From a virus (lineage: Duplodnaviria > Heunggongvirae > Uroviricota > Caudoviricetes), in IMG/VR virus record IMGVR_UViG_2534681900_000010: a stretch of 33,600 nt of DNA. One strand, 5' to 3'. The notes beneath the pieces are model-generated. The model had not been told where the DNA came from. It made no database searches and saw only the letters and a program-made list of their open reading frames with translations. Shown here piece by piece: positions 1 through 33,600 of this stretch. How positions within the stretch are numbered: the first letter of the stretch is position 1; every line of letters begins with the position of its first letter. The translations under genes were made by a program, and so were the position numbers.

Positions 1-981
1 TTATAACGTCACTCCGCCTTTTAGTGGATTCAGAGCGACGGCGTTCTGCAGGTAGTCAGGCGCAAGGTGCGCATAGGTCATTGTCTGCTGAATGCTCGCA
101 TGCCCCAGAATCTGTTGCAGTGCAATTATGTTGCCCCCATTCATCATGAAATGGCTTGCGAATGTATGCCGCAGAATGTGGGTTGCCTGATTGGGAGGTA
201 TATCAGGTTTCACTCTGCGTAAAATCCCGCAAAACTTCTCATAATCTACCTTGAACAATTTGGCGCTGGCCTCCTCTTTAACTTTTTTCTCCAGTTCCTC
301 AGAAATCGGCACTGTTCGCTTTTTACCGTTTTTGGTTTTCAGGAAGGTAACCCTGCAACTTGTAATCTGTGCTGGTTTTAGCGTGGCAACTTCCGTCCAT
401 CTTCCTCCAGTGCTCAGACATAAAAGCGCGACAAGTAAGTCATCACCAGTCAAAACATTTAGCAGTTTTTCGATTTCTGCTTTTTCCAGGAACGTCATTT
501 CAGGGTTAGCCTCCGTCAGTGGCGGCAGTCCGTGAATTGGGTGTTGCCCGGAAAATTCATCCAATTGAATTAATTTTGTGAACATGCCGGATAATCGGTA
601 CATGTCGCGGTTTATCGTTGCAGCACTGATGCCATCACGTAGTCGCATGGAGCGATAATCCATCAAAGCCCTTTTGTTCATCCGACTCACTGGTATATCA
701 CCTATGCCGCTGATGGTTTTGAGCAGATGATTAAACTCTTTTGTCCCATGCTCGTGGTTTTGCCCGTGGTATTTCCACCAGATGTCGAGCAATTCTGTCA
801 AAGTTCGGCGGTCTGCTCGCTGGCCTCCCCATTCTTTCTGACTGGCATTGACGATTGTGTATCGCTCAAATGCTACCGCTTCAGCTTTTCTTTCAAATTT
901 CCTGCGGATGCGTTTTCCATCGCGACCGCGAGGCCTGATATCCACTTCATAACGTCCATCATCGAGCTTTCTGATACTCAT
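1..981 (-). CDS. int: Tyrosine site-specific integrase (P2 Int-like)
   Basis: C-terminal catalytic region ...ATHILRHTFASHFMMNGG...GHASIQQTMTYAHL (HxxR and Tyr nucleophile). Sits at the prophage left end next to the C repressor. ORF-track ORF 1..1191 is trimmed to the ATG at 979-981 (MSIRKLDDGRYEV...); the upstream extension overlaps C and is not taken as coding. Confidence 0.9.
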   Translation of the reverse strand: MSIRKLDDGRYEVDIRPRGRDGKRIRRKFERKAEAVAFERYTIVNASQKEWGGQRADRRTLTELLDIWWKYHGQNHEHGTKEFNHLLKTISGIGDIPVSRMNKRALMDYRSMRLRDGISAATINRDMYRLSGMFTKLIQLDEFSGQHPIHGLPPLTEANPEMTFLEKAEIEKLLNVLTGDDLLVALLCLSTGGRWTEVATLKPAQITSCRVTFLKTKNGKKRTVPISEELEKKVKEEASAKLFKVDYEKFCGILRRVKPDIPPNQATHILRHTFASHFMMNGGNIIALQQILGHASIQQTMTYAHLAPDYLQNAVALNPLKGGVTL

Positions 982-4101: not shown

Positions 4102-6400
4102 AGCCTCCGGGCGTTTTGTCCCTCCGTCAGCATTTGCCGCAGGCACCGGTAAGACGTTTACCGGTGCTTATGCATGGAACGCGCCACGCGAGGCTGTCGG
4201 GCGCGAAAGACCCCTTACACGTGACGAGATGCGTCAGGTGCAAGGTGTTTTATCCACGATTAACCGCCTGCCTTACTTTTTGCGCTCGCTGTTTACTTCA
4301 CGTTATGACTACATCCGGCGCAATAAAAGCCCGGTGCACGGGTTTTATTTCCTCACATCCACTTTTCAGCGTCGTTTATGGCCGCGCATTGAGCGTGTGA
4401 ATCAGCGCCATGAAATGAACACCGACGCGTCGTTGCTGTTTCTGGCAGAGCGTGACCACTATGCGCGCCTGCCGGGAATGAATGACAAGGAGCTGAAAAA
4501 GTTTGCTGCCCGTATCTCATCGCAGCTTTTCATGATGTATGAGGAACTCTGCGATGCCTGGGTTGATGCACATGGCGAAAAAGAATCGCTGTTTACGGAT
4601 GAGGCGCAGGCTCACCTCTATGGTCATGTTGCTGGCGCTGCACGTGCTTTCAATATTTCCCCGCTCTACTGGAAAAAATACCGTAAAGGACAGATGACCA
4701 CGAGGCAGGCATATTCTGCCATTGCCCGCCTGTTTAACGATGAGTGGTGGACTCATCAGCTTAAAGGCCAGCGTATGCGCTGGCATGAGGCGTTACTGAT
4801 TGCTGTCGGGGAGGTCAATAAAGACCGTTCTCCTTATGCCAGTAAACATGCCATTCGTGATGTGCGTGCACGCCGCCAGGCAAATCTGGAATTTCTTAAA
4901 TCGTGTGACCTCGAAAACAGGGAAACCGGCGAACGCATCGACCTTATCAGTAAGGTGATGGGCAGTATTTCTAATCCTGAAATTCGCCGGATGGAGCTGA
5001 TGAACACCATTGCCGGTATTGAGCGTTACGCCACCGCAGAGGGTGATGTGGGGATGTTTATCACGCTGACCACGCCGTCAAAGTATCACCCGACACGTCA
5101 GGTCGGAAAAGGCGAAAATAAAACCGTCCAGCTTAATCACGGCTGGAACGATGAGGCATTTAATCCAAAGGATGCGCAGCGTTATCTCTGCCGTATCTGG
5201 AGCCTGATGCGCACGGCATTCAAGGATAATGACTTACAGGTCTACGGTTTGCGTGTCGTCGAGCCACACCACGACGGAACGCCGCACTGGCATATGATGC
5301 TTTTTTGTAATCCACGCCAGCGTAACCAGATTATTGAAATCATGCGTCGCTACGCGCTCAAAGAGGATGGAGACGAAAGAGGAGCCGCGCGAAACCGTTT
5401 TCAGGCAAAACATCTTAACCGGGGCGGTGCTGCGGGGTATATCGCGAAATACATCTCAAAAAACATCGATGGCTATGCACTGGATGGTCAGCTCGATAAC
5501 GATACCGGCAGGCCGCTGAAAGATACTGCTGCGGCTGTTACCGCATGGGCGTCAACGTGGCGCATTCCGCAATTTAAAACGGTTGGTCTGCCGACAATGG
5601 GGGCTTACCGTGAACTACGCAAATTGCCTCGCGGCGTCAGCATTGCTGATGAGTTTGACGAGCGCGTCGAGGCTGCACGCGCCGCTGCAGACAGTGGTGA
5701 TTTTGCGTTGTATATCAGCGCGCAGGGCGGGGCAAATGTCCCGCGCGATTGTCAGACTGTCAGGGTCGCCCGTAGCCCGTCGGATGACGTTAACGAGTAC
5801 GAGGAAGAGGTCGAGAGAGCGGTCGGCATTTACGCGCCGCATCTCGGCGCGCGTCATATTCATATCACCAGAACGACGGACTGGCGCATTGTGCCGAAAG
5901 TTCCGGTCGTTGAGCCTTTGACTTTAAAAAGCGGCATCGCCGCGCCTCGGAGTCCTGTCAATAACTGTGGAAAGCTCACCGGTGGTGATACTTCGTCACC
6001 GGCTCCCACGCCTTCTGAACACGCCGCAGCAGTGCTTAATCTGGTAGATGACGGTGTTATTGAATGGAATGACCCGGTGGTCGTGAGGGCGCTCAGAGGC
6101 GCATTAAAATACGGCCTGAGAAGACCAAACCGTCAGCAAAGAAACGGAATACCGTTAAAACCGCATGAAATAGCACCATCGGCCAGGCTGACCCGGTCAG
6201 AACGAATGCAAATTACCCGTATCCGTGTTGACCTTGCTCAGAACGGTATCAGGCCTCAGCGATGGGAGCTTGAGGCGCTGGCGCGTGGGGCGACCGTAAA
6301 TTATGACGGGAAACAATTTACGTATCCGGTTGCTGATGAGTGGCCGGGATTTTTACAAACAGAAATTGTTTTTGGGATTAATAAGTTATCTCTAAGCTAA
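4091..6400 (+). CDS. A: Replication initiation endonuclease A (rolling-circle initiator)
   Basis: 769-aa product beginning MAVKASGRFVPPSAFAAGTGK..., recalled as highly similar to P2 gpA. ORF-track ORF 4049..6400 is trimmed to the ATG at 4091. Confidence 0.9.
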   Translation: MAVKASGRFVPPSAFAAGTGKTFTGAYAWNAPREAVGRERPLTRDEMRQVQGVLSTINRLPYFLRSLFTSRYDYIRRNKSPVHGFYFLTSTFQRRLWPRIERVNQRHEMNTDASLLFLAERDHYARLPGMNDKELKKFAARISSQLFMMYEELCDAWVDAHGEKESLFTDEAQAHLYGHVAGAARAFNISPLYWKKYRKGQMTTRQAYSAIARLFNDEWWTHQLKGQRMRWHEALLIAVGEVNKDRSPYASKHAIRDVRARRQANLEFLKSCDLENRETGERIDLISKVMGSISNPEIRRMELMNTIAGIERYATAEGDVGMFITLTTPSKYHPTRQVGKGENKTVQLNHGWNDEAFNPKDAQRYLCRIWSLMRTAFKDNDLQVYGLRVVEPHHDGTPHWHMMLFCNPRQRNQIIEIMRRYALKEDGDERGAARNRFQAKHLNRGGAAGYIAKYISKNIDGYALDGQLDNDTGRPLKDTAAAVTAWASTWRIPQFKTVGLPTMGAYRELRKLPRGVSIADEFDERVEAARAAADSGDFALYISAQGGANVPRDCQTVRVARSPSDDVNEYEEEVERAVGIYAPHLGARHIHITRTTDWRIVPKVPVVEPLTLKSGIAAPRSPVNNCGKLTGGDTSSPAPTPSEHAAAVLNLVDDGVIEWNDPVVVRALRGALKYGLRRPNRQQRNGIPLKPHEIAPSARLTRSERMQITRIRVDLAQNGIRPQRWELEALARGATVNYDGKQFTYPVADEWPGFLQTEIVFGINKLSLS

Positions 6401-6522
6401 GACGCTCAAAGCAAGAGATTATTTTACTGTACGTAGCCATCTGGAATTGTGGCTGTGTTAAAACGCTCGAGATTTTTTGGATATCCAGTTATACTCCGCT
6501 TAGAAATCATTCGGAGACTAAG

Positions 6523-7569
6523 ATGGCGGTAAAAGTTGTTGATCTTTTTTGCGGTGCTGGCGGTTTAACGCACGGCTTACATTTGGCCGGATTGGACGTT
6601 GTCGCAGGCATTGATTTAGAAGGTGAGTGTCGTGTTGCATACGAAAGCAATAATGATGCACTTTTTATTGAAAAAGATATATCTCTGGTGACAAAAGATG
6701 AAATCGAAAATCTTTTTGAAGGGGCAAGTGTTAAAGTATTGGCCGGATGTGCACCTTGTCAGCCATTTTCTAAATATACTCAGGGAAAAGATAAAAAAAA
6801 TGATAAAAAGTGGCCGTTATTATATGAGTTTGAACGTTTAATAAAAGACACGAAACCAGAAATAGTTACAATGGAAAACGTTCCTGATGTGACAAAACAT
6901 TCTGTCTATGATGATTTTTATAATACCTTAATAGCATTGGGTTATTATGTTTGGGCAAATAAGATTGAATGTGTAGATTTTGAGGTTCCGCAAAACAGAG
7001 TGAGGCATGTATTACTCGCATCTAAATTTGCGCCGATTTCTCTGATGAAACCACAAACATCGGTAAAGCTGACAGTTAGGGATTGCATTGGTAATTTACC
7101 TTCGATTGAAGCGGGACAAGCAGATCCAAAAGACCCTCTCCATAAGGCGAGTAGATTGAGTGAAATTAATCTCAAACGTATTCTACATTCAAAACCGGGG
7201 GGGACATGGAGGGATTGGCCTGCTGAATTAATCGCTTCATGTCATGCCAAGAAAAGTGGGCAGGGATATGCCAGTGTTTATGGTCGTATGTCTTGGGATA
7301 AACCGAGTCCAACGATAACTACACTTTGTTATGGTTTTGGTAATGGACGTTTTGGTCATCCCGAGCAGCATCGTGCAATCTCACTTAGGGAAGCAGCATT
7401 ACTTCAAACGTTTCCTGTTACATATTCATTTACCCAACCGGGCGAGCCGATCAAAATGAAAAATGTCGGGCGTATGATAGGTAATGCTGTTCCTGTAAAC
7501 TTAGGTAAAGCGATTGGTCTTTCAATAGTACATCATTTGAAAGAGTTTCACCCCGCCGCTCTTAAATAA
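6523..7569 (+). CDS. DNA (cytosine-5)-methyltransferase
   Basis: All canonical C5-MTase motifs are present in order: DLFCGAGG (motif I, AdoMet), GCAPCQPFS (motif IV, catalytic Cys), TMENVPDV (motif VI), VPQNRVRHVLL (motif VIII), MIGNAVPVNLGKAIG (motif X). Visibly AT-rich relative to the phage backbone. Confidence 0.9.
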   Translation: MAVKVVDLFCGAGGLTHGLHLAGLDVVAGIDLEGECRVAYESNNDALFIEKDISLVTKDEIENLFEGASVKVLAGCAPCQPFSKYTQGKDKKNDKKWPLLYEFERLIKDTKPEIVTMENVPDVTKHSVYDDFYNTLIALGYYVWANKIECVDFEVPQNRVRHVLLASKFAPISLMKPQTSVKLTVRDCIGNLPSIEAGQADPKDPLHKASRLSEINLKRILHSKPGGTWRDWPAELIASCHAKKSGQGYASVYGRMSWDKPSPTITTLCYGFGNGRFGHPEQHRAISLREAALLQTFPVTYSFTQPGEPIKMKNVGRMIGNAVPVNLGKAIGLSIVHHLKEFHPAALK

Positions 7570-8267
7570 GCCTGAGTATCAAGATAAGTTTGTATATTTT
7601 CAAGGATGCAGTTGAGATAATGAAAAACTTCATCCTTCATTTCTGTTAGTGTATCAATAGATGTATCTCTGCCTTTGTTTCTAAATGATTCAGAACCATG
7701 AGCAAGGTCGTTTCTGGCCTTTTTTATTGGAAGTAAATTGCAACCATTTCGCGTTATTTCTGAATCTGTATCTGCTGAGAAGCCATATTTTTCAGCGACT
7801 TCTCTAATTTTTCTAGCGTCAACATTTCCAGAAAATAACGGATTTTTATTTGATTGGATAAGTTTTTTGTGAGCGTTTAGCCACTCTTTAAATATAACTT
7901 TTGCAATGTTCCCTTGTGAGAAATCTATTTTCCCATTTGGTGATTGTAAACTATGAAATGCTACTCTTGTAAGGTTTTCATTTACAGTGTCTGCACATAA
8001 TGATTCATTAGACATTAAAACATTATGAATGTCTTCTATTGCATTGGAAATGGTTGCTTCAATGAGATTGTACAATATAATAAATGCATTAGCCTTTAAA
8101 ATATGAGTCATATCAATATCAATGGGTTGTTGTATAGGCGCATCGCTTGTATTCTCTTTATAGACTAGAGATGGTTTTTTGTTTATTAGTAACTGAATGA
8201 ATGAGAAGTATTCATTAATATCTTGCATTCTTTCTTGGAAAAGAATTTTACTTGTCATCTCCTCCAT
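7548..8267 (-). CDS. HEPN-like predicted RNase (239 aa), second gene of the DUF262 operon
   Basis: Rx4H motif in KKARNDLAHGSESF near the C-terminal third. Start ATG is 10 nt downstream of the DUF262 gene stop; its 3' end overlaps the convergent MTase by 22 bp. AT-rich. Confidence 0.6.
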   Translation of the reverse strand: MEEMTSKILFQERMQDINEYFSFIQLLINKKPSLVYKENTSDAPIQQPIDIDMTHILKANAFIILYNLIEATISNAIEDIHNVLMSNESLCADTVNENLTRVAFHSLQSPNGKIDFSQGNIAKVIFKEWLNAHKKLIQSNKNPLFSGNVDARKIREVAEKYGFSADTDSEITRNGCNLLPIKKARNDLAHGSESFRNKGRDTSIDTLTEMKDEVFHYLNCILENIQTYLDTQAYLRAAG

Positions 8268-8277
8268 TTACTTGGCC

Positions 8278-9423
8278 TCACTCCATATTTTCATCTTCAT
8301 TTTCATCTTCGTCGACAATATTTTCTGGAATGTCTTTCCCAAGCAACTTGTTTTTTACATATTCAATGCGTGCTTTAACTTTGGGTTTAGAGTTGCTGGC
8401 ATCTGAACGTGTGTGCGTGATAAACTCTTTCGAGTTGATCCAGTCATCAATATTTTTAGGAACTAAATTGGGTTCTTCCTCTAGTGCTAATGTTGCACCG
8501 ACGGCAAGAGCTTCGAAACGAATCCTAGGAACAGTGGTGGCGTTTTTCACCTTTCTGAAACCATTTGGGAAATGTGTATTAATGAATTGGCTCATTTTAT
8601 GAAATTTTTCCGCCAGCATAGCTGCGTTTTCATCTGTATATTCGGCATTTTTACGTTTTAAATAGGTTGTAAGAAATTCATCAACGCTTTTTCTGAAATC
8701 AAGATATTCTTCAGTGTAGGCAAAGTAGCGTAGTGCCAATTCTGGATATTCAGAGCGACGTTTTCTTGCATCTCCCAAAGGACAGATGCTATGAAATAGA
8801 GGATCTTCGGAAATTTCATTGATAAATGCAAGGAATGGCCCATCATGGCTACCTTGCCGTTGTTCCATTGTTGTTAGTTTTTTTCCGCCAGTATTCAGAC
8901 GGTCAAAAATTTCCCTTCTTGTCTCTTCGTCACAATGTTCTGTAAGTTCAATCATTCGAATAGTTTTTCTATCAAAACGTAGGCGACGGGGAGTACTGAA
9001 ATCAGAATATTTAAAACCATTGGCTGTGACTAATTTCTGCAGGCCTTCAAGAGTTAGTTTGTTATTGGTAAATTGGTGTAGGGTTCTTATTCGTTGGCTA
9101 CCGTCAACAATTTCAAGTCTACCTTCATTTTCACCTGAACCAATATCGGCAACGAATATGTAAGGTATAGGAAGATTTAAAAGCAGAGATTCAATGAAAC
9201 GGGATTTTTGCTTGTTGTTCCAGATAAACTCCCTTTGGTAGTCAGGTATAAAAAGCTCTGCCTCATCTTCTTCAAGACCATTCTGAAATTTGTCCACAAT
9301 AACACTTATCGGGAACTCACGTATTTCATGGTCAGTGATTTTTTGCATTTCAACTATGCTTTGATCTAAAAGCTCCTTTTCTTCTTTAGTTTTTGGGGTA
9401 TGTTCTGCTTTTTTTCTCGCCAT
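8278..9423 (-). CDS. DUF262 (ParB/GmrSD-N-like) domain protein (381 aa)
   Basis: N-terminal region ...FIPDYQREFIWNNKQKSRFIESLLLNLPIPYIFVADIGSGENEGRLEIVDGSQRIRTLHQF contains the DGxQR signature of DUF262. Acidic C-terminal tail (DEDENEDENME). RBS AGGAT about 10 nt upstream. AT-rich. Confidence 0.7.
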   Translation of the reverse strand: MARKKAEHTPKTKEEKELLDQSIVEMQKITDHEIREFPISVIVDKFQNGLEEDEAELFIPDYQREFIWNNKQKSRFIESLLLNLPIPYIFVADIGSGENEGRLEIVDGSQRIRTLHQFTNNKLTLEGLQKLVTANGFKYSDFSTPRRLRFDRKTIRMIELTEHCDEETRREIFDRLNTGGKKLTTMEQRQGSHDGPFLAFINEISEDPLFHSICPLGDARKRRSEYPELALRYFAYTEEYLDFRKSVDEFLTTYLKRKNAEYTDENAAMLAEKFHKMSQFINTHFPNGFRKVKNATTVPRIRFEALAVGATLALEEEPNLVPKNIDDWINSKEFITHTRSDASNSKPKVKARIEYVKNKLLGKDIPENIVDEDENEDENME

Positions 9424-9450
9424 GAGCTTATTATCCTACTATGCGTGTGA

Positions 9451-9539
9451 TTGCATTAAATTGCATGTTAAACAAAAGCATAATCTATATCAGTCAATCA
9501 GCCAGTGGCAAGGTGTTGTGATTACAATGCAACTGCATT
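9451..9539. promoter_or_regulatory. TGCAT-containing direct and inverted repeats upstream of the DUF262 operon
   Basis: TTGCAT at 9451-9456 and 9461-9466, one helical turn apart; inverted repeat AATGCA-AC-TGCATT at 9526-9539. Sits between the operon start (9423) and cos. Confidence 0.3.
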
Positions 9540-9562
9540 AGAACCGACTCATGAAGCGGGCG

Positions 9563-9581
9563 GGCGAGGCGGGGAAAGCAC
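9563..9581. other. cos site (19-nt cohesive-end sequence, P2-type)
   Basis: GGCGAGGCGGGGAAAGCAC matches the P2 cohesive-end sequence as recalled, at the expected place just past the Q 3' end. Confidence 0.75.
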
Positions 9582-9723
9582 TGCGCGCTGGCGGTGGTGC
9601 TGATTTTATTTTTTCAGCGTCTGAGCGCGTCGTGAAGGCGTTTACTTGGCCTGCTGGGGCGTTGGTGTGTCTGCGGGATTTTTTGTGCGGTGATGAGCGT
9701 GTGAGGGCGTGATGACGGGGTGT

Positions 9724-9745
9724 AAAAAAGCCGCCCGCAGGCGGC
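9724..9745 (-). terminator. Rho-independent terminator downstream of Q
   Basis: Hairpin GCCGCC-cgca-GGCGGC flanked on the plus strand by an A6 run, which is a T-run on the minus strand, immediately past the Q stop. Confidence 0.6.
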
Positions 9746-9750
9746 GATGT

Positions 9751-10785
9751 TCAGTCGTTGTCAGTGTCCAGTGAGTAGTTTTTAAAGCGGATGACCTCCT
9801 GACCGAGCCAGCCGTTTATCTCGCGGATCCTGTCCTGTAGCGGGATAAGCTCATTGCGGACAAAGACCTTTGCCACTTTCTCAATATCACCCAGCGACCC
9901 GACGTTCTCCGGCTTGCCGCCCATCAACTGAAAGGGGATGCGGTGCGCGTCCAGCAGGTCAGCGGCACTGGCTTTTTTGATATTAAAAAAATCGTCCTTC
10001 GTCGCCACTTCACTGAGGGGGATAATTTTAATGCCGTCGGCTTTCCCCTGCGGGGCATAGAGAAACAGATTTTTAAAGTTATTGCGGCCTTTCGACTTAA
10101 CCATGTTTTCGCGAAGCATTTCGATATCGTTGCGATCCTGCACGGCATCGGTGACGTACATGATGTATCCGGCATGTGCGCCATTTTCGTAATATTTGCG
10201 GCGGAACAGCGTGGCCGACTCATTCAGCCAGGCAGAGTTAAGGGCGCTGAGATATTCCGGCAGGCCGTACAGCTCCTGATTAATATCCGGCTCCAGCAGG
10301 TGAAACACGGAGCCGGGCGTGAAGGCTGTCGGCTCGTTGAAGGACGGCACCCACCAGTAAACATCCTCCTCCACACCACGGCGGGTATATTTTGCCGGTG
10401 AGGTTTCCAGTCTGATGACCTTACCGGTGGTGCTGTAACGCTTTTCCAGAAACGCATTACCGAACACGAGAAAATCCAGCACAAAGCGGCTGAAATCCTG
10501 TTGCGAAAGCCACGGATGCGGGATAAATGTCGAGGCCAGAATATTGCGTTTGACGTAAATCGGCGAGCTGTGATGCACGGCAGCACGCAGGCTTTTCGCC
10601 AGACCGGTAAAGCTGACCGGCGGCTCATACCATCTGCCGTTACTGATGCACTCGACGTAATCCAGAATGTCACGGCGGTCGAGTACCGGCACCGGCTCAC
10701 CAAAGGTGAATGCCTCCATTTTCGGGGCGCTGGCGGTCATTTTTTTTGCCGCAGGTTGCGGTGTTTTCCCTTTTTTCTTACTCAT
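9751..10785 (-). CDS. Q: Portal (capsid vertex) protein
   Basis: 344 aa, the size recalled for P2 gpQ. Adjacent to cos and divergent from O. Start overlaps the P stop. Confidence 0.9.
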   Translation of the reverse strand: MSKKKGKTPQPAAKKMTASAPKMEAFTFGEPVPVLDRRDILDYVECISNGRWYEPPVSFTGLAKSLRAAVHHSSPIYVKRNILASTFIPHPWLSQQDFSRFVLDFLVFGNAFLEKRYSTTGKVIRLETSPAKYTRRGVEEDVYWWVPSFNEPTAFTPGSVFHLLEPDINQELYGLPEYLSALNSAWLNESATLFRRKYYENGAHAGYIMYVTDAVQDRNDIEMLRENMVKSKGRNNFKNLFLYAPQGKADGIKIIPLSEVATKDDFFNIKKASAADLLDAHRIPFQLMGGKPENVGSLGDIEKVAKVFVRNELIPLQDRIREINGWLGQEVIRFKNYSLDTDND

Positions 10786-12557
10786 CAGTAAAACTCCAGA
10801 ATGGTGGATGTCAGCGGGGTGCTGATACCGGCGGTGAGTGGCTCATTTAACAGGGCGTGCATGGTCGCCCAGGCGAGGTCGGCGTGGCTGGCTTCCTCGC
10901 TGCGGCTGGCCTCATAGGTGGCGCTGCGTCCGCTGCTGGTCATGGTCTTGCGGATAGCCATAAACGAGCTGGTGATGTCGGTGGCGCTGACGTCATATTC
11001 CAGACAGCCACGGCGGATAACGTCTTTTGCCTTGAGCACCATTGCGGTTTTCATTTCCGGTGTGTAGCGGATATCGCGCGCGGCGGGATAGAACGAGCGC
11101 ACGAGCTGGAACACGCCGACACCGAGGCCGGTGGCATCAATACCGATGTATTCGACGTTGTATTTTTCGGTGAGTTTGCGGATGGATTCAGCCTGAGTGG
11201 CAAAGTCCATGCCTTTCCACTGGTGACGCTCAAGTATTCTGAATTTGCCACCGGCCACCACCGGCGGTGCCAGCACCACGCATCCGGCACTGTCGCCACG
11301 GTGTGACGGGTCGTAACCAATCCATACCGGGCGGGAGCCGAACGGATTCGCGGCAAACGGCGCATAGTCTTCCCATTCTTCCAGCGTGTCGACCATGCAG
11401 CGTTGCAGCTCCTCGAACGGGAACACCGACGCCTTGTCGTCAACAAATTCACACATGAACAGGTTTTTAAAATCGTCGGCGCTGTTTTCGCGTTTAAGCT
11501 GCTCAATGTCGAACAATGTGCAGCCGCCTTTCAGGGCGTCCTCAATGGTGACAATCTGCCGCCACTGGCCGTCCGCACAGAGAAGCCCACCGGCAAGGGC
11601 GTTATGACTGACGTCGATTTCCACGCGTTCGGCGGCGCTGGCGCGTCCCCGGTTAAACAGTTCACCGGACCAGAACGGGTAGGCGTCGTGCGCCAGCGTG
11701 GACGGGGTGGAGAAATAGGTCGAGCGCAGGTGACTCTGTGAGGCCATACCTGATGCCACCTTACGGAGCACCTGAAAATTCGGGATCCAGAAAATCTCGT
11801 CGACGTACAGGTCGCCGTTATGGCTCTGCGCGGTGTTGGAGTTGGTGCCGAGAAAAATCAGTTTTGCGCCGTTATTGCCGAGGACAATTGGGTCACCGGT
11901 CAGGTCAACGTCAACCAGCCGGGCAAAGGCGATGATGTATTCGCGGAACACATACGCCTGCGTTTTACTGGCCGACAGAAAAATCTGGTTATGACCGGTT
12001 TTCAGGGCGCGCAGCAGCGCCTCGCGGGAAAAATAAAATGTCGCGCCAATCTGGCGGGATTTCAGGATATCGCGGATGCGGTGCTCAAGCCCGGCGCGAT
12101 ACCAGTGCAACTGATAGTCGAAAGACTGCTCAAAGAAAATCTGCTCCAGCTTTTCGATGGCTTCGTCACTGAAAAAATTCTTTTTCGGTTTGCGCCGCCC
12201 GCCTTTGTTGCGGTTAGCGACGTTCGGATTAAGGTCTGCCTCGTTGCCGGTCTGGCTGTAGCGATTTACCCGTGCCAGTCGTTCAATCTGGCGTCCCAGC
12301 AGGTCAATTTCCTTGAAGTCACCGCCGGTTTTCTGCGGTTTGATGATGAGCTGGGTCAGCCGCGCTTCCAGGCTCATTTCGACACGGCTGATGGGGGCAA
12401 CGCTGTCCCAGCCGTCGCGCTGTTTCCAGCTCTGCACCGTCGGGCGTTTCATCTGCAACATGGCGGCAATCTGCGGCACGGAAAACCCCTGCCAGTACAG
12501 CAGTGCCGCCTGACGACGCGGGTCGTGTAAAAGAGTGGTGTCTGTGGTGATGGTCAT
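10785..12557 (-). CDS. P: Terminase large (ATPase) subunit
   Basis: About 590-aa product upstream of Q on the minus strand. Start taken at the ATG at 12555-12557 (MTITTD...); an alternative start is 12587. Confidence 0.9.
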   Translation of the reverse strand: MTITTDTTLLHDPRRQAALLYWQGFSVPQIAAMLQMKRPTVQSWKQRDGWDSVAPISRVEMSLEARLTQLIIKPQKTGGDFKEIDLLGRQIERLARVNRYSQTGNEADLNPNVANRNKGGRRKPKKNFFSDEAIEKLEQIFFEQSFDYQLHWYRAGLEHRIRDILKSRQIGATFYFSREALLRALKTGHNQIFLSASKTQAYVFREYIIAFARLVDVDLTGDPIVLGNNGAKLIFLGTNSNTAQSHNGDLYVDEIFWIPNFQVLRKVASGMASQSHLRSTYFSTPSTLAHDAYPFWSGELFNRGRASAAERVEIDVSHNALAGGLLCADGQWRQIVTIEDALKGGCTLFDIEQLKRENSADDFKNLFMCEFVDDKASVFPFEELQRCMVDTLEEWEDYAPFAANPFGSRPVWIGYDPSHRGDSAGCVVLAPPVVAGGKFRILERHQWKGMDFATQAESIRKLTEKYNVEYIGIDATGLGVGVFQLVRSFYPAARDIRYTPEMKTAMVLKAKDVIRRGCLEYDVSATDITSSFMAIRKTMTSSGRSATYEASRSEEASHADLAWATMHALLNEPLTAGISTPLTSTILEFY

Positions 12558-14720: not shown

Positions 14721-15458
14721 ATGACGAGTCCCGCACAGCGCCACATGATGCGGGTCTCGGCAGCGATGACCGCGCAGCGGGAAGCCGCCCCGCTGCGACA
14801 TGCAACTGTCTATGAGCAGATGCTGGTTAAGCTCGCCGCAGACCAGCGCACACTGAAAGCAATTTATTCAAAAGAGCTGAAGGCCGCGAAAAAACGCGAA
14901 CTGCTGCCGTTCTGGTTGCCGTGGGTGAACGGCGTGCTGGAGCAGGGCAAAGGTGCACAGGATGACATTCTGATGACGGTCATGCTGTGGCGTCTGGATA
15001 CCGGCGATATTGCCGGTGCGCTGGAGATTGCCCGTTATGCCCTGAAGTACGGTCTGACCATGCCGGGTAAACACCGCCGCACCCCGCCGTACATGTTCAC
15101 CGAGGAGGTGGCGCTTGCGGCCATGCGCGCTCACGCTGCCGGTGAGTCTGTGGATCCCCGCCTGCTGACGGACACCCTTGAACTGACCGCCACGGCTGAC
15201 ATGCCTGATGAAGTGCGCGCAAAGCTGCACAAAATCACCGGTCTGTTTCTGCGTGACGGTGGTGATGCCGCAGGTGCGCTGGCACACCTGCAACGTGCGA
15301 CACAGCTCGACTGTCAGGCAGGCGTCAAAAAAGAGATTGAACGACTGGAGCGGGAGCTGAAACCGAAGCCGGAGCCAAAAGCGGTCACCCGCGCCCCGCG
15401 TAAGACCCGGAGTGCGACACCGGCAAAACGTGGACGCCCGAAAAAGAAAGCCAGTTAA
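14721..15458 (+). CDS. M: Terminase small / endonuclease subunit
   Basis: 245 aa at the P2 gpM position; basic Lys/Arg-rich C-terminal tail. Confidence 0.85.
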   Translation: MTSPAQRHMMRVSAAMTAQREAAPLRHATVYEQMLVKLAADQRTLKAIYSKELKAAKKRELLPFWLPWVNGVLEQGKGAQDDILMTVMLWRLDTGDIAGALEIARYALKYGLTMPGKHRRTPPYMFTEEVALAAMRAHAAGESVDPRLLTDTLELTATADMPDEVRAKLHKITGLFLRDGGDAAGALAHLQRATQLDCQAGVKKEIERLERELKPKPEPKAVTRAPRKTRSATPAKRGRPKKKAS

Positions 15459-21423: not shown

Positions 21424-24183
21424 ATGAGCACGAAATTTAAAACCGTTATCACTACTGCCGGAGCCGCAAAGCTGGCAGCCGCCACTGTCCCCGGCGGGAA
21501 AAAAGTAAACCTGTCTGCAATGGCCGTGGGTGACGGTAATGGCAAATTGCCGGTGCCGGATGCCGGTCAGACGAAACTGGTGCATGAGGTCTGGCGTCAC
21601 GCTCTGAATAAAGTCAGCGTGGATAACAAGAATAAAAACTATATCGTGGCTGAACTGGTTGTACCGCCCGAAGTGGGCGGCTTCTGGATGCGTGAGCTTG
21701 GTCTGTATGACGATGCCGGAACACTGATTGCGGTATCCAACATGGCAGAAAGCTATAAGCCAGAACTGGCTGAAGGCTCCGGACGTGCGCAGACCTGCCG
21801 CATGGTTATTATTCTCAGCAACGTGGCGTCCGTTGAGCTGAGTATTGATGCCAGCACGGTGATGGCGACGCAGGATTACGTCGATGACAAAATCGCAGAG
21901 CATGAGCAGTCCCGCCGCCATCCTGACGCCACGCTGACAGAAAAAGGTTTTACTCAGTTAAGCAGTGCAACAAACAGCACCAGTGAAAAGCTGGCGGCAA
22001 CGCCAAAAGCGGTCAAGGCAGCAAATGACAACGCAAATTCACGTCTGGCGAAAAATCAGAACGGTGCAGATATCCAGGATAAATCAGTTTTTCTGGACAA
22101 TGTTGGCGTTACCAGCCTGACGTTTATGAAAAACAATGGCGAAATGCCGCTTGATGCTGATCTGAATACATTTGGTCCCGTTAAGGCTTATCTGGGGATC
22201 TGGTCTAAAGCTACCTCAACTAACGCAACACTGGAGAAAAATTTCCCGGAAGATAATGCTGTCGGTGTGCTTGAGGTTTTTGCTGCCGGCAATTTTGCAG
22301 GTACGCAACGCTTTACCACAAGAGACGGCAATGTATACATGCGTAAACTCGCCAATAAGTGGAATGGCACTGATGGTCCGTGGGGCGTATGGCGTCACAC
22401 TCAATCAGCTACCCGCCCTTTGAGTACGACTATAGACCTGAATACGCTTGGAGCCGCCGAACATCTTGGTTTATGGCGTAACAGTAGCTCGGCTATAGCT
22501 TCATATGAACGCAATTATCCAGAGGAAGGCGGCTTTGCTCAGGGGACGCTTGAGATCCTCGAAGGCGGGAATTATGGAAGAACGCAACGTTATACCACTC
22601 GCCGTGGAAATATGTATGTCCGCTGCCTTGCGGCAAGCTGGGATGCATCAAATCCGCAGTGGGAACCGTGGTTAAGAGTCGGTCATCAGTCAGAGAGTCG
22701 TTATTACGAAGGTGATTTGAATGATGTAACCTCACCAGGTATTTACAGCGTTACAGGTAAAGCGACCAACGGTCCAGTACTGGACGGAAACGGCGTGACT
22801 GTACTCGGCATTCTGGAAGTGTTGAGGCGGTTTGATGGTGTTAATGTATGGCAGCGTTATACAACTGCCGGAACAGGTACAACCCTTAAAGGCCGCACCT
22901 TTGAGCGCGTCTTTACCGGCAGCTCATGGAGCGAATGGCGGGAAGTCTACACCTCGTATTCACTTCCCCTGAATCTGGGTATCGGCGGTGCTGTGGCAAA
23001 GCTCACCAGCCTGGACTGGCAGACCTACGATTTTGTGCCGGGCAGTCTGATAACCGTTAGGCTGGATAATATGACCAATATTCCCGACGGTATGGACTGG
23101 GGCGTCATTGATGGCAACCTGATAAACATCGCAGTTGGTCCGAGTGATGATTCCGGTACGGGGCGCTCAATGCATGTATGGCGCAGCACTGTAAGTAAAG
23201 CGAACTACCGATTTTTTATGGTGCGTATTTCAGGAAATCCGGGAAGCCGCACGATCACAGCAAGACGAGTACCAATCATTGACGAAGCCCAGACATGGGG
23301 CGCGAAACAGACATTCAGTGCTGGCCTTTCTGGTGAACTGTCCGGCAATGCGGCGACAGCAACAAAGCTGAAAACAGCCCGTAAAATTAATAACGTTTCG
23401 TTTGATGGAACATCAGATATTAACCTGACGCCGAAAAATATTGGTGCATTTGCTTCAGGAAAAACAGGAGACACCGTTGCGAATGATAAAGCCGTTGGGT
23501 GGAACTGGAGTAGCGGAGCCTATAACGCAACTACTGGTGGGGCATCAACGTTAATTCTTCATTTTAATATCGGTGAAGGAAGTTGTCCCGCCGCCCAGTT
23601 CCGCGTTAATTATAAGAACGGCGGTATTTTTTATCGTTCTGCTCGTGACGGTTACGGATTCGAGGCTGACTGGTCTGAGTTTTATACCACAACGCGAAAA
23701 CCTACAGCGGGAGATGTCGGTGCACTGCCGTTATCTGGTGGTCAATTGAATGGTGCTCTGGGTATAGGAACATCCAGTGCTCTTGGCGGTAATTCGATTG
23801 TTTTGGGTGATAATGACACGGGCTTTAAACAAAATGGTGATGGTAATCTGGATGTTTATGCTAATAGCGTCCATATTATGCGCTTTGTCTCGGGAAGTAT
23901 TCAAAGTAATAAAACCATAAATATTACGGGGCGTGTTAATCCCTCGGATTACGGTAACTTTGATTCCCGCTATGTCCGGGATATCCGGCTTGGTGGTGCT
24001 GCCACATACAAACCTGCGAACAATGGCATGACATGGACACATCAGGCACCGTCCGGGTGTGTATATTCCGGCATTATTGTTCAGGATACCGGCTCAAACT
24101 CTGCCGATAACATTGGTGGTGTATATTACAGGCCGGTTCAGAAATACATTAACGGGACATGGTATAACGTGGCGCAGGTATAA
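21424..24183 (+). CDS. H: Tail fibre protein (enlarged relative to P2 H)
   Basis: 919 aa. The N-terminal part is a conserved baseplate-attachment region, followed by tandem repeats and the ATATKLKTARKINNVSFDGTSDINLTPKNIGAF tail-fibre motif. P2 H is recalled as about 670 aa. Confidence 0.9.
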   Translation: MSTKFKTVITTAGAAKLAAATVPGGKKVNLSAMAVGDGNGKLPVPDAGQTKLVHEVWRHALNKVSVDNKNKNYIVAELVVPPEVGGFWMRELGLYDDAGTLIAVSNMAESYKPELAEGSGRAQTCRMVIILSNVASVELSIDASTVMATQDYVDDKIAEHEQSRRHPDATLTEKGFTQLSSATNSTSEKLAATPKAVKAANDNANSRLAKNQNGADIQDKSVFLDNVGVTSLTFMKNNGEMPLDADLNTFGPVKAYLGIWSKATSTNATLEKNFPEDNAVGVLEVFAAGNFAGTQRFTTRDGNVYMRKLANKWNGTDGPWGVWRHTQSATRPLSTTIDLNTLGAAEHLGLWRNSSSAIASYERNYPEEGGFAQGTLEILEGGNYGRTQRYTTRRGNMYVRCLAASWDASNPQWEPWLRVGHQSESRYYEGDLNDVTSPGIYSVTGKATNGPVLDGNGVTVLGILEVLRRFDGVNVWQRYTTAGTGTTLKGRTFERVFTGSSWSEWREVYTSYSLPLNLGIGGAVAKLTSLDWQTYDFVPGSLITVRLDNMTNIPDGMDWGVIDGNLINIAVGPSDDSGTGRSMHVWRSTVSKANYRFFMVRISGNPGSRTITARRVPIIDEAQTWGAKQTFSAGLSGELSGNAATATKLKTARKINNVSFDGTSDINLTPKNIGAFASGKTGDTVANDKAVGWNWSSGAYNATTGGASTLILHFNIGEGSCPAAQFRVNYKNGGIFYRSARDGYGFEADWSEFYTTTRKPTAGDVGALPLSGGQLNGALGIGTSSALGGNSIVLGDNDTGFKQNGDGNLDVYANSVHIMRFVSGSIQSNKTINITGRVNPSDYGNFDSRYVRDIRLGGAATYKPANNGMTWTHQAPSGCVYSGIIVQDTGSNSADNIGGVYYRPVQKYINGTWYNVAQV
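22159..22960 (+). repeat. Three tandem ~92-aa coding repeats inside tail fibre gene H
   Basis: Repeat units start at 22159 (DLNTFGPVKAYLGIW...), 22435 (DLNTLGAAEHLGLW...) and 22714 (DLNDVTSPGIYSV...). Each carries G.LE(V/I)...QR(F/Y)TT..G..Y.R...W..W. Periods are 276 and 279 nt. Confidence 0.7.
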
Positions 24184-24935: not shown

Positions 24936-25529
24936 ATGTTTACTAAGCGACGATTAAAAAATATTAACTGGGAGGCAAGTTCAGTGATTCTTGCTATGGT
25001 TCTCTTTGTTGGAAATATATTTTATACAAATCATCGTGATGATATAAGCATGGAGGCTGAGAGGGACAGTATCAGAACAATGTTTGCATATGAAATCGCT
25101 AATAACCATCGCGCTCTCACTTTTCTTGATAAAACGAGATATATTGGCTTTGACGAAAATTCGGAGCATTTTGTTGGCGAGCCTTTTGCCATTAATGTCA
25201 AATCATTAGGGGGGCCTCGCTTACAGATTGCATTAAACCAGAGTGATAAAGTGTTTAAATCCTACTTCAGCGAATTAAGTAAGCTTGATAAAGAGGATGT
25301 TACTCTTCTTATGGACTATTACCATGAGCAAAGCATCCTGCTGGAGCGTGTAAAATCTACGTTACAGAAGATGAAAAGTGGTAATGATATTAAAGTTGAT
25401 ATTGATGGTTACTTATTAGAAGAACACTTCATGAATGAGCTTAATCTTTCTAATATTTTGCTTAAACGCTATAGCCATTTGTTGTCACAACACGCCAAAG
25501 AACATAAAACAAAAGATTTACATAATTGA
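24936..25529 (+). CDS. Hypothetical membrane-anchored protein (197 aa) at the Z/fun accessory locus
   Basis: AT-rich ORF between G and FI. RBS AAGGTG 6 nt upstream. N-terminal hydrophobic segment SSVILAMVLFVGNIFY after a basic MFTKRRLK start. No recognisable catalytic motif. Confidence 0.6.
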   Translation: MFTKRRLKNINWEASSVILAMVLFVGNIFYTNHRDDISMEAERDSIRTMFAYEIANNHRALTFLDKTRYIGFDENSEHFVGEPFAINVKSLGGPRLQIALNQSDKVFKSYFSELSKLDKEDVTLLMDYYHEQSILLERVKSTLQKMKSGNDIKVDIDGYLLEEHFMNELNLSNILLKRYSHLLSQHAKEHKTKDLHN

Positions 25530-32498: not shown

Positions 32499-32589
32499 TG
32501 GTCGATGTGGACGCTATGTGGACAGTGGTTGATATAAATCCATTTATATCATCAGGTTAGGTGCTTTTTTGTGACACCATCCCTGTCTT

Positions 32590-32618
32590 CCCCCACATGA
32601 TGTGGGGGTTTTTTTTAT
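32590..32618 (+). terminator. Strong intrinsic terminator hairpin at the host junction (possible att-associated)
   Basis: CCCCCACAT-g-ATGTGGGGG palindrome followed by a T10 run, between the prophage end and fieF. Confidence 0.6.
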
Positions 32619-32697
32619 CCTCAATTTGCCTGCTGCTTAATGCATTGCAGATGATTTGCTTCCGTTATACTACCGTCAGTTGATAGCGGGAGTATTT

Positions 32698-33600
32698 ATG
32701 AATCAATCTTATGGACGGCTGGTCAGTCGGGCGGCGATTGCTGCGACGGCGATGGCTTCGCTGCTATTGCTGATTAAAATTTTTGCATGGTGGTATACCG
32801 GGTCGGTGAGTATTCTCGCCGCGCTGGTGGATTCGCTGGTGGATATCGGCGCGTCGTTGACGAATTTACTGGTGGTGCGATATTCCCTGCAACCTGCCGA
32901 CGATAATCACTCGTTTGGTCACGGTAAAGCTGAGTCCCTCGCGGCGCTGGCGCAAAGTATGTTTATCTCCGGTTCGGCACTATTCCTGTTTTTGACGGGT
33001 ATTCAACATCTGGTATCTCCAACACCGATGACAGATCCAGGCGTCGGGGTTATCGTGACAATTGTGGCGCTAATTTGTACGATTATCCTTGTCTCGTTTC
33101 AGCGTTGGGTGGTGCGCCGGACGCAAAGCCAGGCGGTGCGGGCTGATATGCTACATTACCAGTCTGATGTTATGATGAACGGCGCAATTCTGCTGGCGCT
33201 GGGGTTGTCCTGGTACGGCTGGCATCGCGCCGATGCTCTGTTTGCATTGGGGATCGGCATCTATATTTTATATAGCGCGTTACGCATGGGATATGAGGCG
33301 GTACAGTCATTACTGGATCGCGCATTGCCTGATGAGGAACGGCAAGAAATTATTGATATCGTGACTTCCTGGCCGGGTGTTAGCGGCGCTCACGATCTTC
33401 GCACGCGGCAGTCAGGGCCGACCCGCTTTATTCAGATTCATTTGGAAATGGAAGACTCTCTGCCTTTGGTTCAGGCACATATGGTGGCGGATCAGGTAGA
33501 GCAGGCTATTTTACGGCGTTTTCCGGGATCGGATGTGATTATCCATCAGGACCCCTGTTCCGTCGTACCCAGGGAGGGTAAACGGTCTATGCTTTCATAA
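32698..33600 (+). CDS. fieF: Cation-efflux pump FieF (CDF family ferrous-iron/zinc exporter), host gene
   Basis: 300-aa product [49 protein letters not shown]... recalled as E. coli FieF/YiiP. ORF-track ORF trimmed to the ATG at 32698; stop at 33598-33600. Confidence 0.9.

Follow-up and report, generated by a model that had tools for sequence, protein, structure and literature searches.

Phage P2 and its satellite P4 have one cohesive end site in common. Two publications describe it, as secondary statements, as a '55-bp cos' (PMC2231350 and PMC9594776, citing Ziermann & Calendar 1990), and the former states that cleavage of the P2/P4 cos yields 19-nt ends and that closed circles are the preferred packaging substrate (PMC2231350). 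This site is the sole region of homology between P2 and P4 (PMC9122126). In P2-like prophages, the cos-adjacent locus between gpA and gpQ represents a hotspot of anti-phage systems, as derived from 18,150 loci by Rousset et al. 2022 (PMC9122126), who also already proposed the swapping of cassettes next to cos. Uncharacterised PD-T4-2-type DUF262 defence modules have been mentioned as well (PMC12065111).

We analysed a stretch of viral DNA of 33,600 nucleotides, which will be referred to as the window and which contains the 19-mer GGCGAGGCGGGGAAAGCAC (Table 1). This 19-mer very probably belongs to the functional cos of an apparently intact P2-like (Peduovirus) prophage of E. coli, integrated between cpxP and fieF. 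Judged by its sequence, the cos site itself is already known, a textbook P2 cos in textbook position. Its importance lies mainly in annotation and it opens no new question: it fixes the ends of the virion genome for annotation, at 9563 on the left and at 9562/9581 on the right, and it places an island with methyltransferase, HEPN and DUF262 genes in the known cos-adjacent defence hotspot.

Table 1. Positions and supporting evidence of the features discussed, in coordinates of the 33,600-nt window
Feature	Position	Strand	Evidence or remarks
Integrase gene, left edge of the window	1-981	-	Pfam Int_N and Phage_integrase
Cos-adjacent accessory island	6401-9527		gpA-gpQ hotspot; place of P2 orf91/tin/old
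C5 cytosine methyltransferase	6523-7569	+	Pfam
HEPN_MAE_28990 protein	7548-8267	-	Pfam; no PADLOC match
DUF262/GmrSD_N protein	8278-9423	-	PADLOC NsnA 1.3e-54, PD-T4-2_A 1.3e-34
Candidate sigma-70-like promoter of the DUF262-HEPN operon	9482-9511	-	consensus match only, 9/12 positions
Conserved cos core, presumed terminase recognition and cleavage region	9528-9588		column conservation and five-way alignment
19-nt cohesive-end sequence, cosN-equivalent	9563-9581	+	exact and unique; identical to P2 cosL/cosR and to the start of P4
tQ, rho-independent terminator of the P-Q operon	9730-9745	-	between Q and cos
Portal gene Q	9751-10785	-	99.1% identity to P2 gpQ, 344/344 aa; Pfam Phage_portal
Terminase large subunit gene P (ATPase/nuclease)	10785-12557	-	100% identity to P2 gpP, 590/590 aa
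Terminase small subunit gene M	14721-15458	+	97.2% identity to P2 gpM, full length; Pfam Phage_term_smal
attR core, right prophage boundary	32573-32619	+	47-bp duplication; P24B2 homology ends at 32619

The 19-nt cohesive end and its conserved core

In the record of phage P2 (NC_001895), bases 1..19 are annotated as 'cosL; left cohesive end' and bases 33575..33593 as 'cosR; right cohesive end'. Both are identical to the 19-mer of the window in 19 of 19 positions, and the same holds true for the first 19 bases of satellite P4 (NC_001609). Phage 186 (NC_001317) likewise has a 19-nt 5′ cohesive end at an equivalent place relative to its portal gene W and a terminator, but its flanks are diverged and its counterpart, GGCGTGGCGGGGAAAGCAT, carries two substitutions (17 of 19 positions identical). 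The window 19-mer conforms to the pattern GGCG(A/T)GGCGGGGAAAGCA(C/T) of P2/186/P4-type cohesive ends. A first-pass annotation had called this sequence a P2-type 19-nt cohesive end site and had named an alignment with the P2 and 186 cos regions as a check; the alignment bears out this identification, and the conserved core and intact terminase genes are present as well.

Allowing up to 3 mismatches, the 19-mer is the sole match on both strands of the window, and searching the entire window with the same tolerance for a second or degenerate cos yielded none. We rejected the explanation that a G-rich 19-mer without function had arisen here by chance, which appears next to impossible: none of 100 dinucleotide-preserving shuffles of the window contained a match even at 3 mismatches, and arithmetic gives an expectation of ~2.4e-7 exact matches in 2 x 33,600 positions. 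The syntenic position of the 19-mer and its 61-bp context, which is kept in more than 100 loci, argue against chance in the same way.

Public loci carrying the exact 19-mer comprised 120 viral contigs and 38 stretches of species-representative genomes (158 in total), the latter mostly belonging to the Enterobacterales, e.g., Escherichia, Salmonella, Klebsiella, Raoultella, Kosakonia and Dickeya. When the 118 loci with enough flanking sequence were anchored on the 19-mer, column conservation was high from −35 to +25 in P2-like and P4-like loci alike, corresponding to a core of 61 bp in the window. Aligning the circularised junctions of five sequences, namely the window, P2, P24B2 (Peduovirus, NC_049387 / LR595873), P4 and 186, also yielded a shared block around the 19-mer. 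By its extent and distribution, this core agrees with the '55-bp cos' of the literature and with the restriction of P2/P4 homology to cos. It holds the small palindromes AATGCA/TGCATT and GCGCGC, and an inverted-repeat search around cos detected short palindromes only. Outside the core, P2-like loci are variable left of −36 and conserved rightward as far as Q, whereas P4-like loci show the opposite pattern with a conserved left and a variable right flank. P4 itself shares the identical 19-mer and the core from about −35 to +25 with the window. The arrangement in P4-like elements is the mirror image of that in the window: their conserved flank lies left of cos, with psu ending about 171-177 bp ahead of it, and their variable hotspot lies to the right.

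The record of 186 describes the nick geometry with the words 'top strand cut at 5' end and bottom strand cut at 3' end'. Carrying this geometry over to the window predicts nicks at 9562/9563 in the top strand and at 9581/9582 in the bottom strand, which would generate 19-nt 5′ overhangs. The record of P24B2, the closest among phages, is linearised exactly at cos but starts with the 17-mer GGCGAGGCGGAAAGCAC, which lacks two G's out of the four in the canonical end. An error in this record, at its end or in a homopolymer, probably accounts for the difference; otherwise, some variation in length would be tolerated.

Directly to the right of the 19-mer, a hairpin with a T-run behind it (GCGCTGGCGGTGGTGC TGATTTTATTTTTT), resembling a terminator, is located at 9585-9613 on the plus strand. 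The bases right of the 19-mer including this hairpin are identical in 51 of 62 P2-like loci and are not kept in P4-like loci, so that the hairpin is probably not needed for recognition by the terminase; it might serve as a stop for read-through from the early operon. An open reading frame overlapping cos (9551-9712, plus strand, 53 aa) yielded no match in a Pfam search and is annotated neither in P2 nor in P24B2. It was treated as spurious, although a hypothetical protein is annotated at this position in some phage records.

Portal and terminase genes beside cos

The 19-mer sits between the start codon of the DUF262 gene and the stop codon of portal gene Q, and the earlier assignment of cos to the interval between a cargo island and Q was thereby confirmed. 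The Q stop codon is found at +188 from the first base of cos (9751 − 9563 = 188). A Q homolog was detected in 107 of the 158 loci with the exact 19-mer, and a distance of exactly +188 was the commonest spacing, seen in 73 of these 107 loci. A homolog of P4 psu was present instead in 30 of the 158 loci, ending 168-177 bp left of cos. A minority of loci (L151, L161 and several viral ones) have the Q homolog 1.7-3.2 kb to the right of cos and not at 188 bp, which implies occasional insertion of cargo on the Q side of cos as well.

A scan for terminators identified GCCGCCTGCGGGCGGC followed by TTTTTT, which aligns with the P2 feature tQ (160..181). The right flank of cos through tQ and Q is ~93% identical to that of P2, and the gene order is the same. 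The domains Terminase_6N, Terminase_6C and Terminase_5 were found by Pfam in the product of gene P. The 19-mer, the flanking core, the position and a cognate terminase encoded by the same element are those of a P2/186/P4-type cos.

It might be argued that the site was derived from a P4-like satellite, or from a fragment imported with the cargo island, and is not a native P2-like cos. The 19-mer of P4 is identical, and the left half-core (TGCAACTGCATTA...) is closer to P4 and 186 than to the P2 reference, the window reading ATGCAACTGCATTAGAACCGACTCATGAAG where P2 reads ATTAAGGTGCATTAAAACCGCCCCGTGAAG, a difference of several bases. But the TGCAACTGCATTA variant is common among P2-like loci, in which the P2 reference is the outlier, and it was therefore discarded as a sign of exchange with P4 or 186. 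Furthermore, the window contains a single cos, P2-type sequence extends on its right as far as Q in the commonest arrangement, and to the left, where the A gene and the cargo are located, no homologs of psu, sid or delta were found. With the psu homolog absent and the right flank being of the P2 type, a satellite origin was ruled out as highly improbable, and we regard the site as the native cos of the P2-like prophage.

Based on what is known for P2, P4 and 186, the following course of events can be proposed. Int and Cox would recombine attL with attR, thereby excising the prophage as a circle of ~32.7 kb, which would replicate from the gpA nick site to yield monomeric circles. The terminase, composed of gpM (small subunit) and gpP (large subunit), is expected to recognise the ~60-bp cos core at 9528-9588 and to introduce two nicks 19 nt apart, one 5′ of G9563 in the top strand and one after the base opposite C9581 in the bottom strand, and the linear DNA would be packaged via the gpQ portal. 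The left virion end, on the Q side, would start at 9563, and the right end, on the cargo side, would stop at 9562/9581. The two ends would carry complementary 19-nt 5′ overhangs, which presumably anneal after injection and are then ligated. Since it retains a packaging signal that fits the terminase it encodes, the prophage is probably still a viable phage and potentially a helper of P4-like satellites. P4-like satellites carry the same core and can thus, by analogy, use the terminase of this prophage.

Completeness, boundaries and gene order of the prophage

Completeness was evaluated by comparing every P2 protein with the window using tblastn. Q, P, O, N, M, L, X, Y, K, lysA/B/C, R, S, V, W, J, I, G, FI, FII, E, T, U, D, ogr, B and A were detected at full length and without internal stops, V and A aligning with P2 over all but the last 6-7 residues. 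Identities to P2 within this set were mostly 89-100%, with 74% for G. The tail-fibre protein H matches P2 over the first 207 residues only; the open reading frame in the window is intact (919 aa, 21424-24183, plus strand), which suggests a receptor-binding part different from that of P2. Int, C and cox show only 45-51% protein identity to P2, demonstrating that the immunity and integration module is different from that of P2, and the attachment site between cpxP and fieF differs as well. P2 orf30, fun(Z), orf91, tin and old were absent from the window by tblastn. The Z/fun position between G and FI, the second variable locus of P2, is occupied by an open reading frame of 197 aa (24936-25529, plus strand) without a Pfam match.

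The right 1 kb of the window represents E. coli chromosome (fieF), and homology to the empty cpxP-fieF intergenic region of K-12 starts at 32573. Related lysogens have the 47 bp GACACCATCCCTGTCTTCCCCCACATGATGTGGGGGTTTTTTTTATC at either border of the prophage, a sequence made up of the cpxP terminator and the 3′ end of cpxQ; the att core of P24B2 is the same as that of the window. cpxQ is a small RNA gene, and with the duplication of the 47-bp att core upon integration the 3′ end of cpxP/cpxQ is regenerated at attL. The window begins at the stop codon of int, and attL is located just outside. The prophage at the cpxP-fieF site of E. coli strain 447 has an int/immunity module with 100% identity to that of the window; its int is annotated as 981 nt (PGAP), and its attL contains the identical 47-bp core 115 bp past the int stop codon. 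From this placement, the size of the excised circle was estimated to be ~32,734 bp, 97% of the length of P2. The best match to the fieF flank, E. coli strain N53, contains a related prophage with different cargo, so that strain 447 was taken for the left junction instead.

The order of genes in the window is int-C-cox-B-A-cargo-cos-Q-P/O-N-M-L...D-ogr-attR-fieF. The linear records of P2 and P24B2 both begin at the base corresponding to window position 9563, and that of P24B2 ends at the base corresponding to 9562. Judged from these alignments, the window shows the gene order expected after circular permutation of a P2-type virion map with attP between ogr and int, the prophage map being permuted because attP and cos lie apart on the circle. 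The circular permutation of an integrated P2-like genome, for which the 19-mer had been quoted as confirmation, could thus be reproduced. An integrated P2-like (Peduovirus) prophage was recognised by its gene order in tblastn, its collinearity with P24B2 and P2 and its attR, with attL deduced from strain 447.

These data also bear on whether cos might be a relic in a defective prophage no longer capable of excision, replication or packaging, in which case the site would remain uncut or depend on a helper. In line with this, attL lies outside the window so that the left junction is not covered by sequence, and the near-identical prophage of strain 2015C-4136CT1 has a frameshifted tape-measure gene and a frameshifted methyltransferase gene, which points to decay in this lineage. 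P2-type prophages are also poorly inducible. On the other hand, the essential P2 genes, H excepted, are present at full length, contain no stops and show mostly 89-100% identity, the terminase, the portal and the cos core are intact, as is attR, and another strain has an intact attL next to an identical int module. With all essential genes intact, we consider a relic improbable and favour a functional cos; intactness here means full length without stops, and inactivating point mutations remain conceivable.

Compared to P24B2, the prophage is mosaic, with ~80% DNA identity in the int/C/cox module and 96.6-98.5% in the remainder. Strain 447 combines the identical int/immunity module with other cos-adjacent cargo, encoding an ImmA/IrrE protein and hypothetical proteins, and P24B2 combines the same cargo with a different int module of only 80% identity. 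These different pairings indicate that immunity module and cargo assort independently at the cpxP-fieF site. An insert of ~545 bp between cox and orf78 (window ~1805-2345) is absent from P2 and P24B2. It contains two or three small open reading frames (1862-2050, plus; 2054-2296, minus; 1828-1998, minus), for which a Pfam search yielded no matches. The insert also occurs in E. coli strain 447, with small hypothetical genes annotated there by PGAP, and in the Yersinia phages vB_YpM_115 and vB_YpM_117.

The accessory island left of cos

Between window positions 6352 and 9562, no homology to P2 was detected outside the cos core, which begins at ~9528; the stop codon of A is at 6400. In place of P2 orf91, tin and old, the island left of cos encodes a methyltransferase along with the HEPN and DUF262 proteins. 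Lying where these P2 genes are found, directly left of cosR, the cargo is assigned by the P2 map convention to the right terminus of virion DNA. The earlier claim that the island marks the extreme right end therefore stands, 'right end' being a matter of this convention.

The DUF262 and HEPN genes form a two-gene operon (7548-9423, minus strand) reading away from cos. The P2 old-tin transcript starts ~150 bp from cosR, and the old-tin promoter also reads away from cos. Modules of the PD-T4-2/DUF262 type consist of a DUF262 (ParB-like) sensor protein and a nuclease effector, and those of the DUF262-HEPN type are thought to sense DNA modification. By its predicted domains, the operon resembles the uncharacterised PD-T4-2-type DUF262 defence modules.

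The cargo island and the flanks of cos are nearly identical to those of P24B2, with five differences over 6401-9600 (3 substitutions and 2 differences in the length of G-runs). A run of seven G's (G7) is located at 7198-7204 within the methyltransferase gene. Of five near-identical copies of this gene, those of the window and of two E. coli genomes are in frame with G7, whereas P24B2 has G8 and a shorter annotated gene, and strain 2015C-4136CT1 has G6 and is annotated as 'frameshifted'. This variation could be due to on/off switching of the methyltransferase by slipped-strand events or to homopolymer sequencing errors. We regard it as rather unlikely, though worth stating from the comparison of these sequences, that the homology break at −36 is a cos-adjacent junction for cassette swapping among P2-like phages and that the methyltransferase may in addition be switched via G7 beside the DUF262-HEPN genes.

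With its defence-type genes between gpA and gpQ beside cos, the island corresponds to the hotspot of Rousset et al., but this particular arrangement is rare. Among 5,426 complete E. coli genomes, the junction query matched somewhere in 2,156, with only the cos-Q part covered among the matches listed, and the junction of cargo, cos and Q was present in 3.
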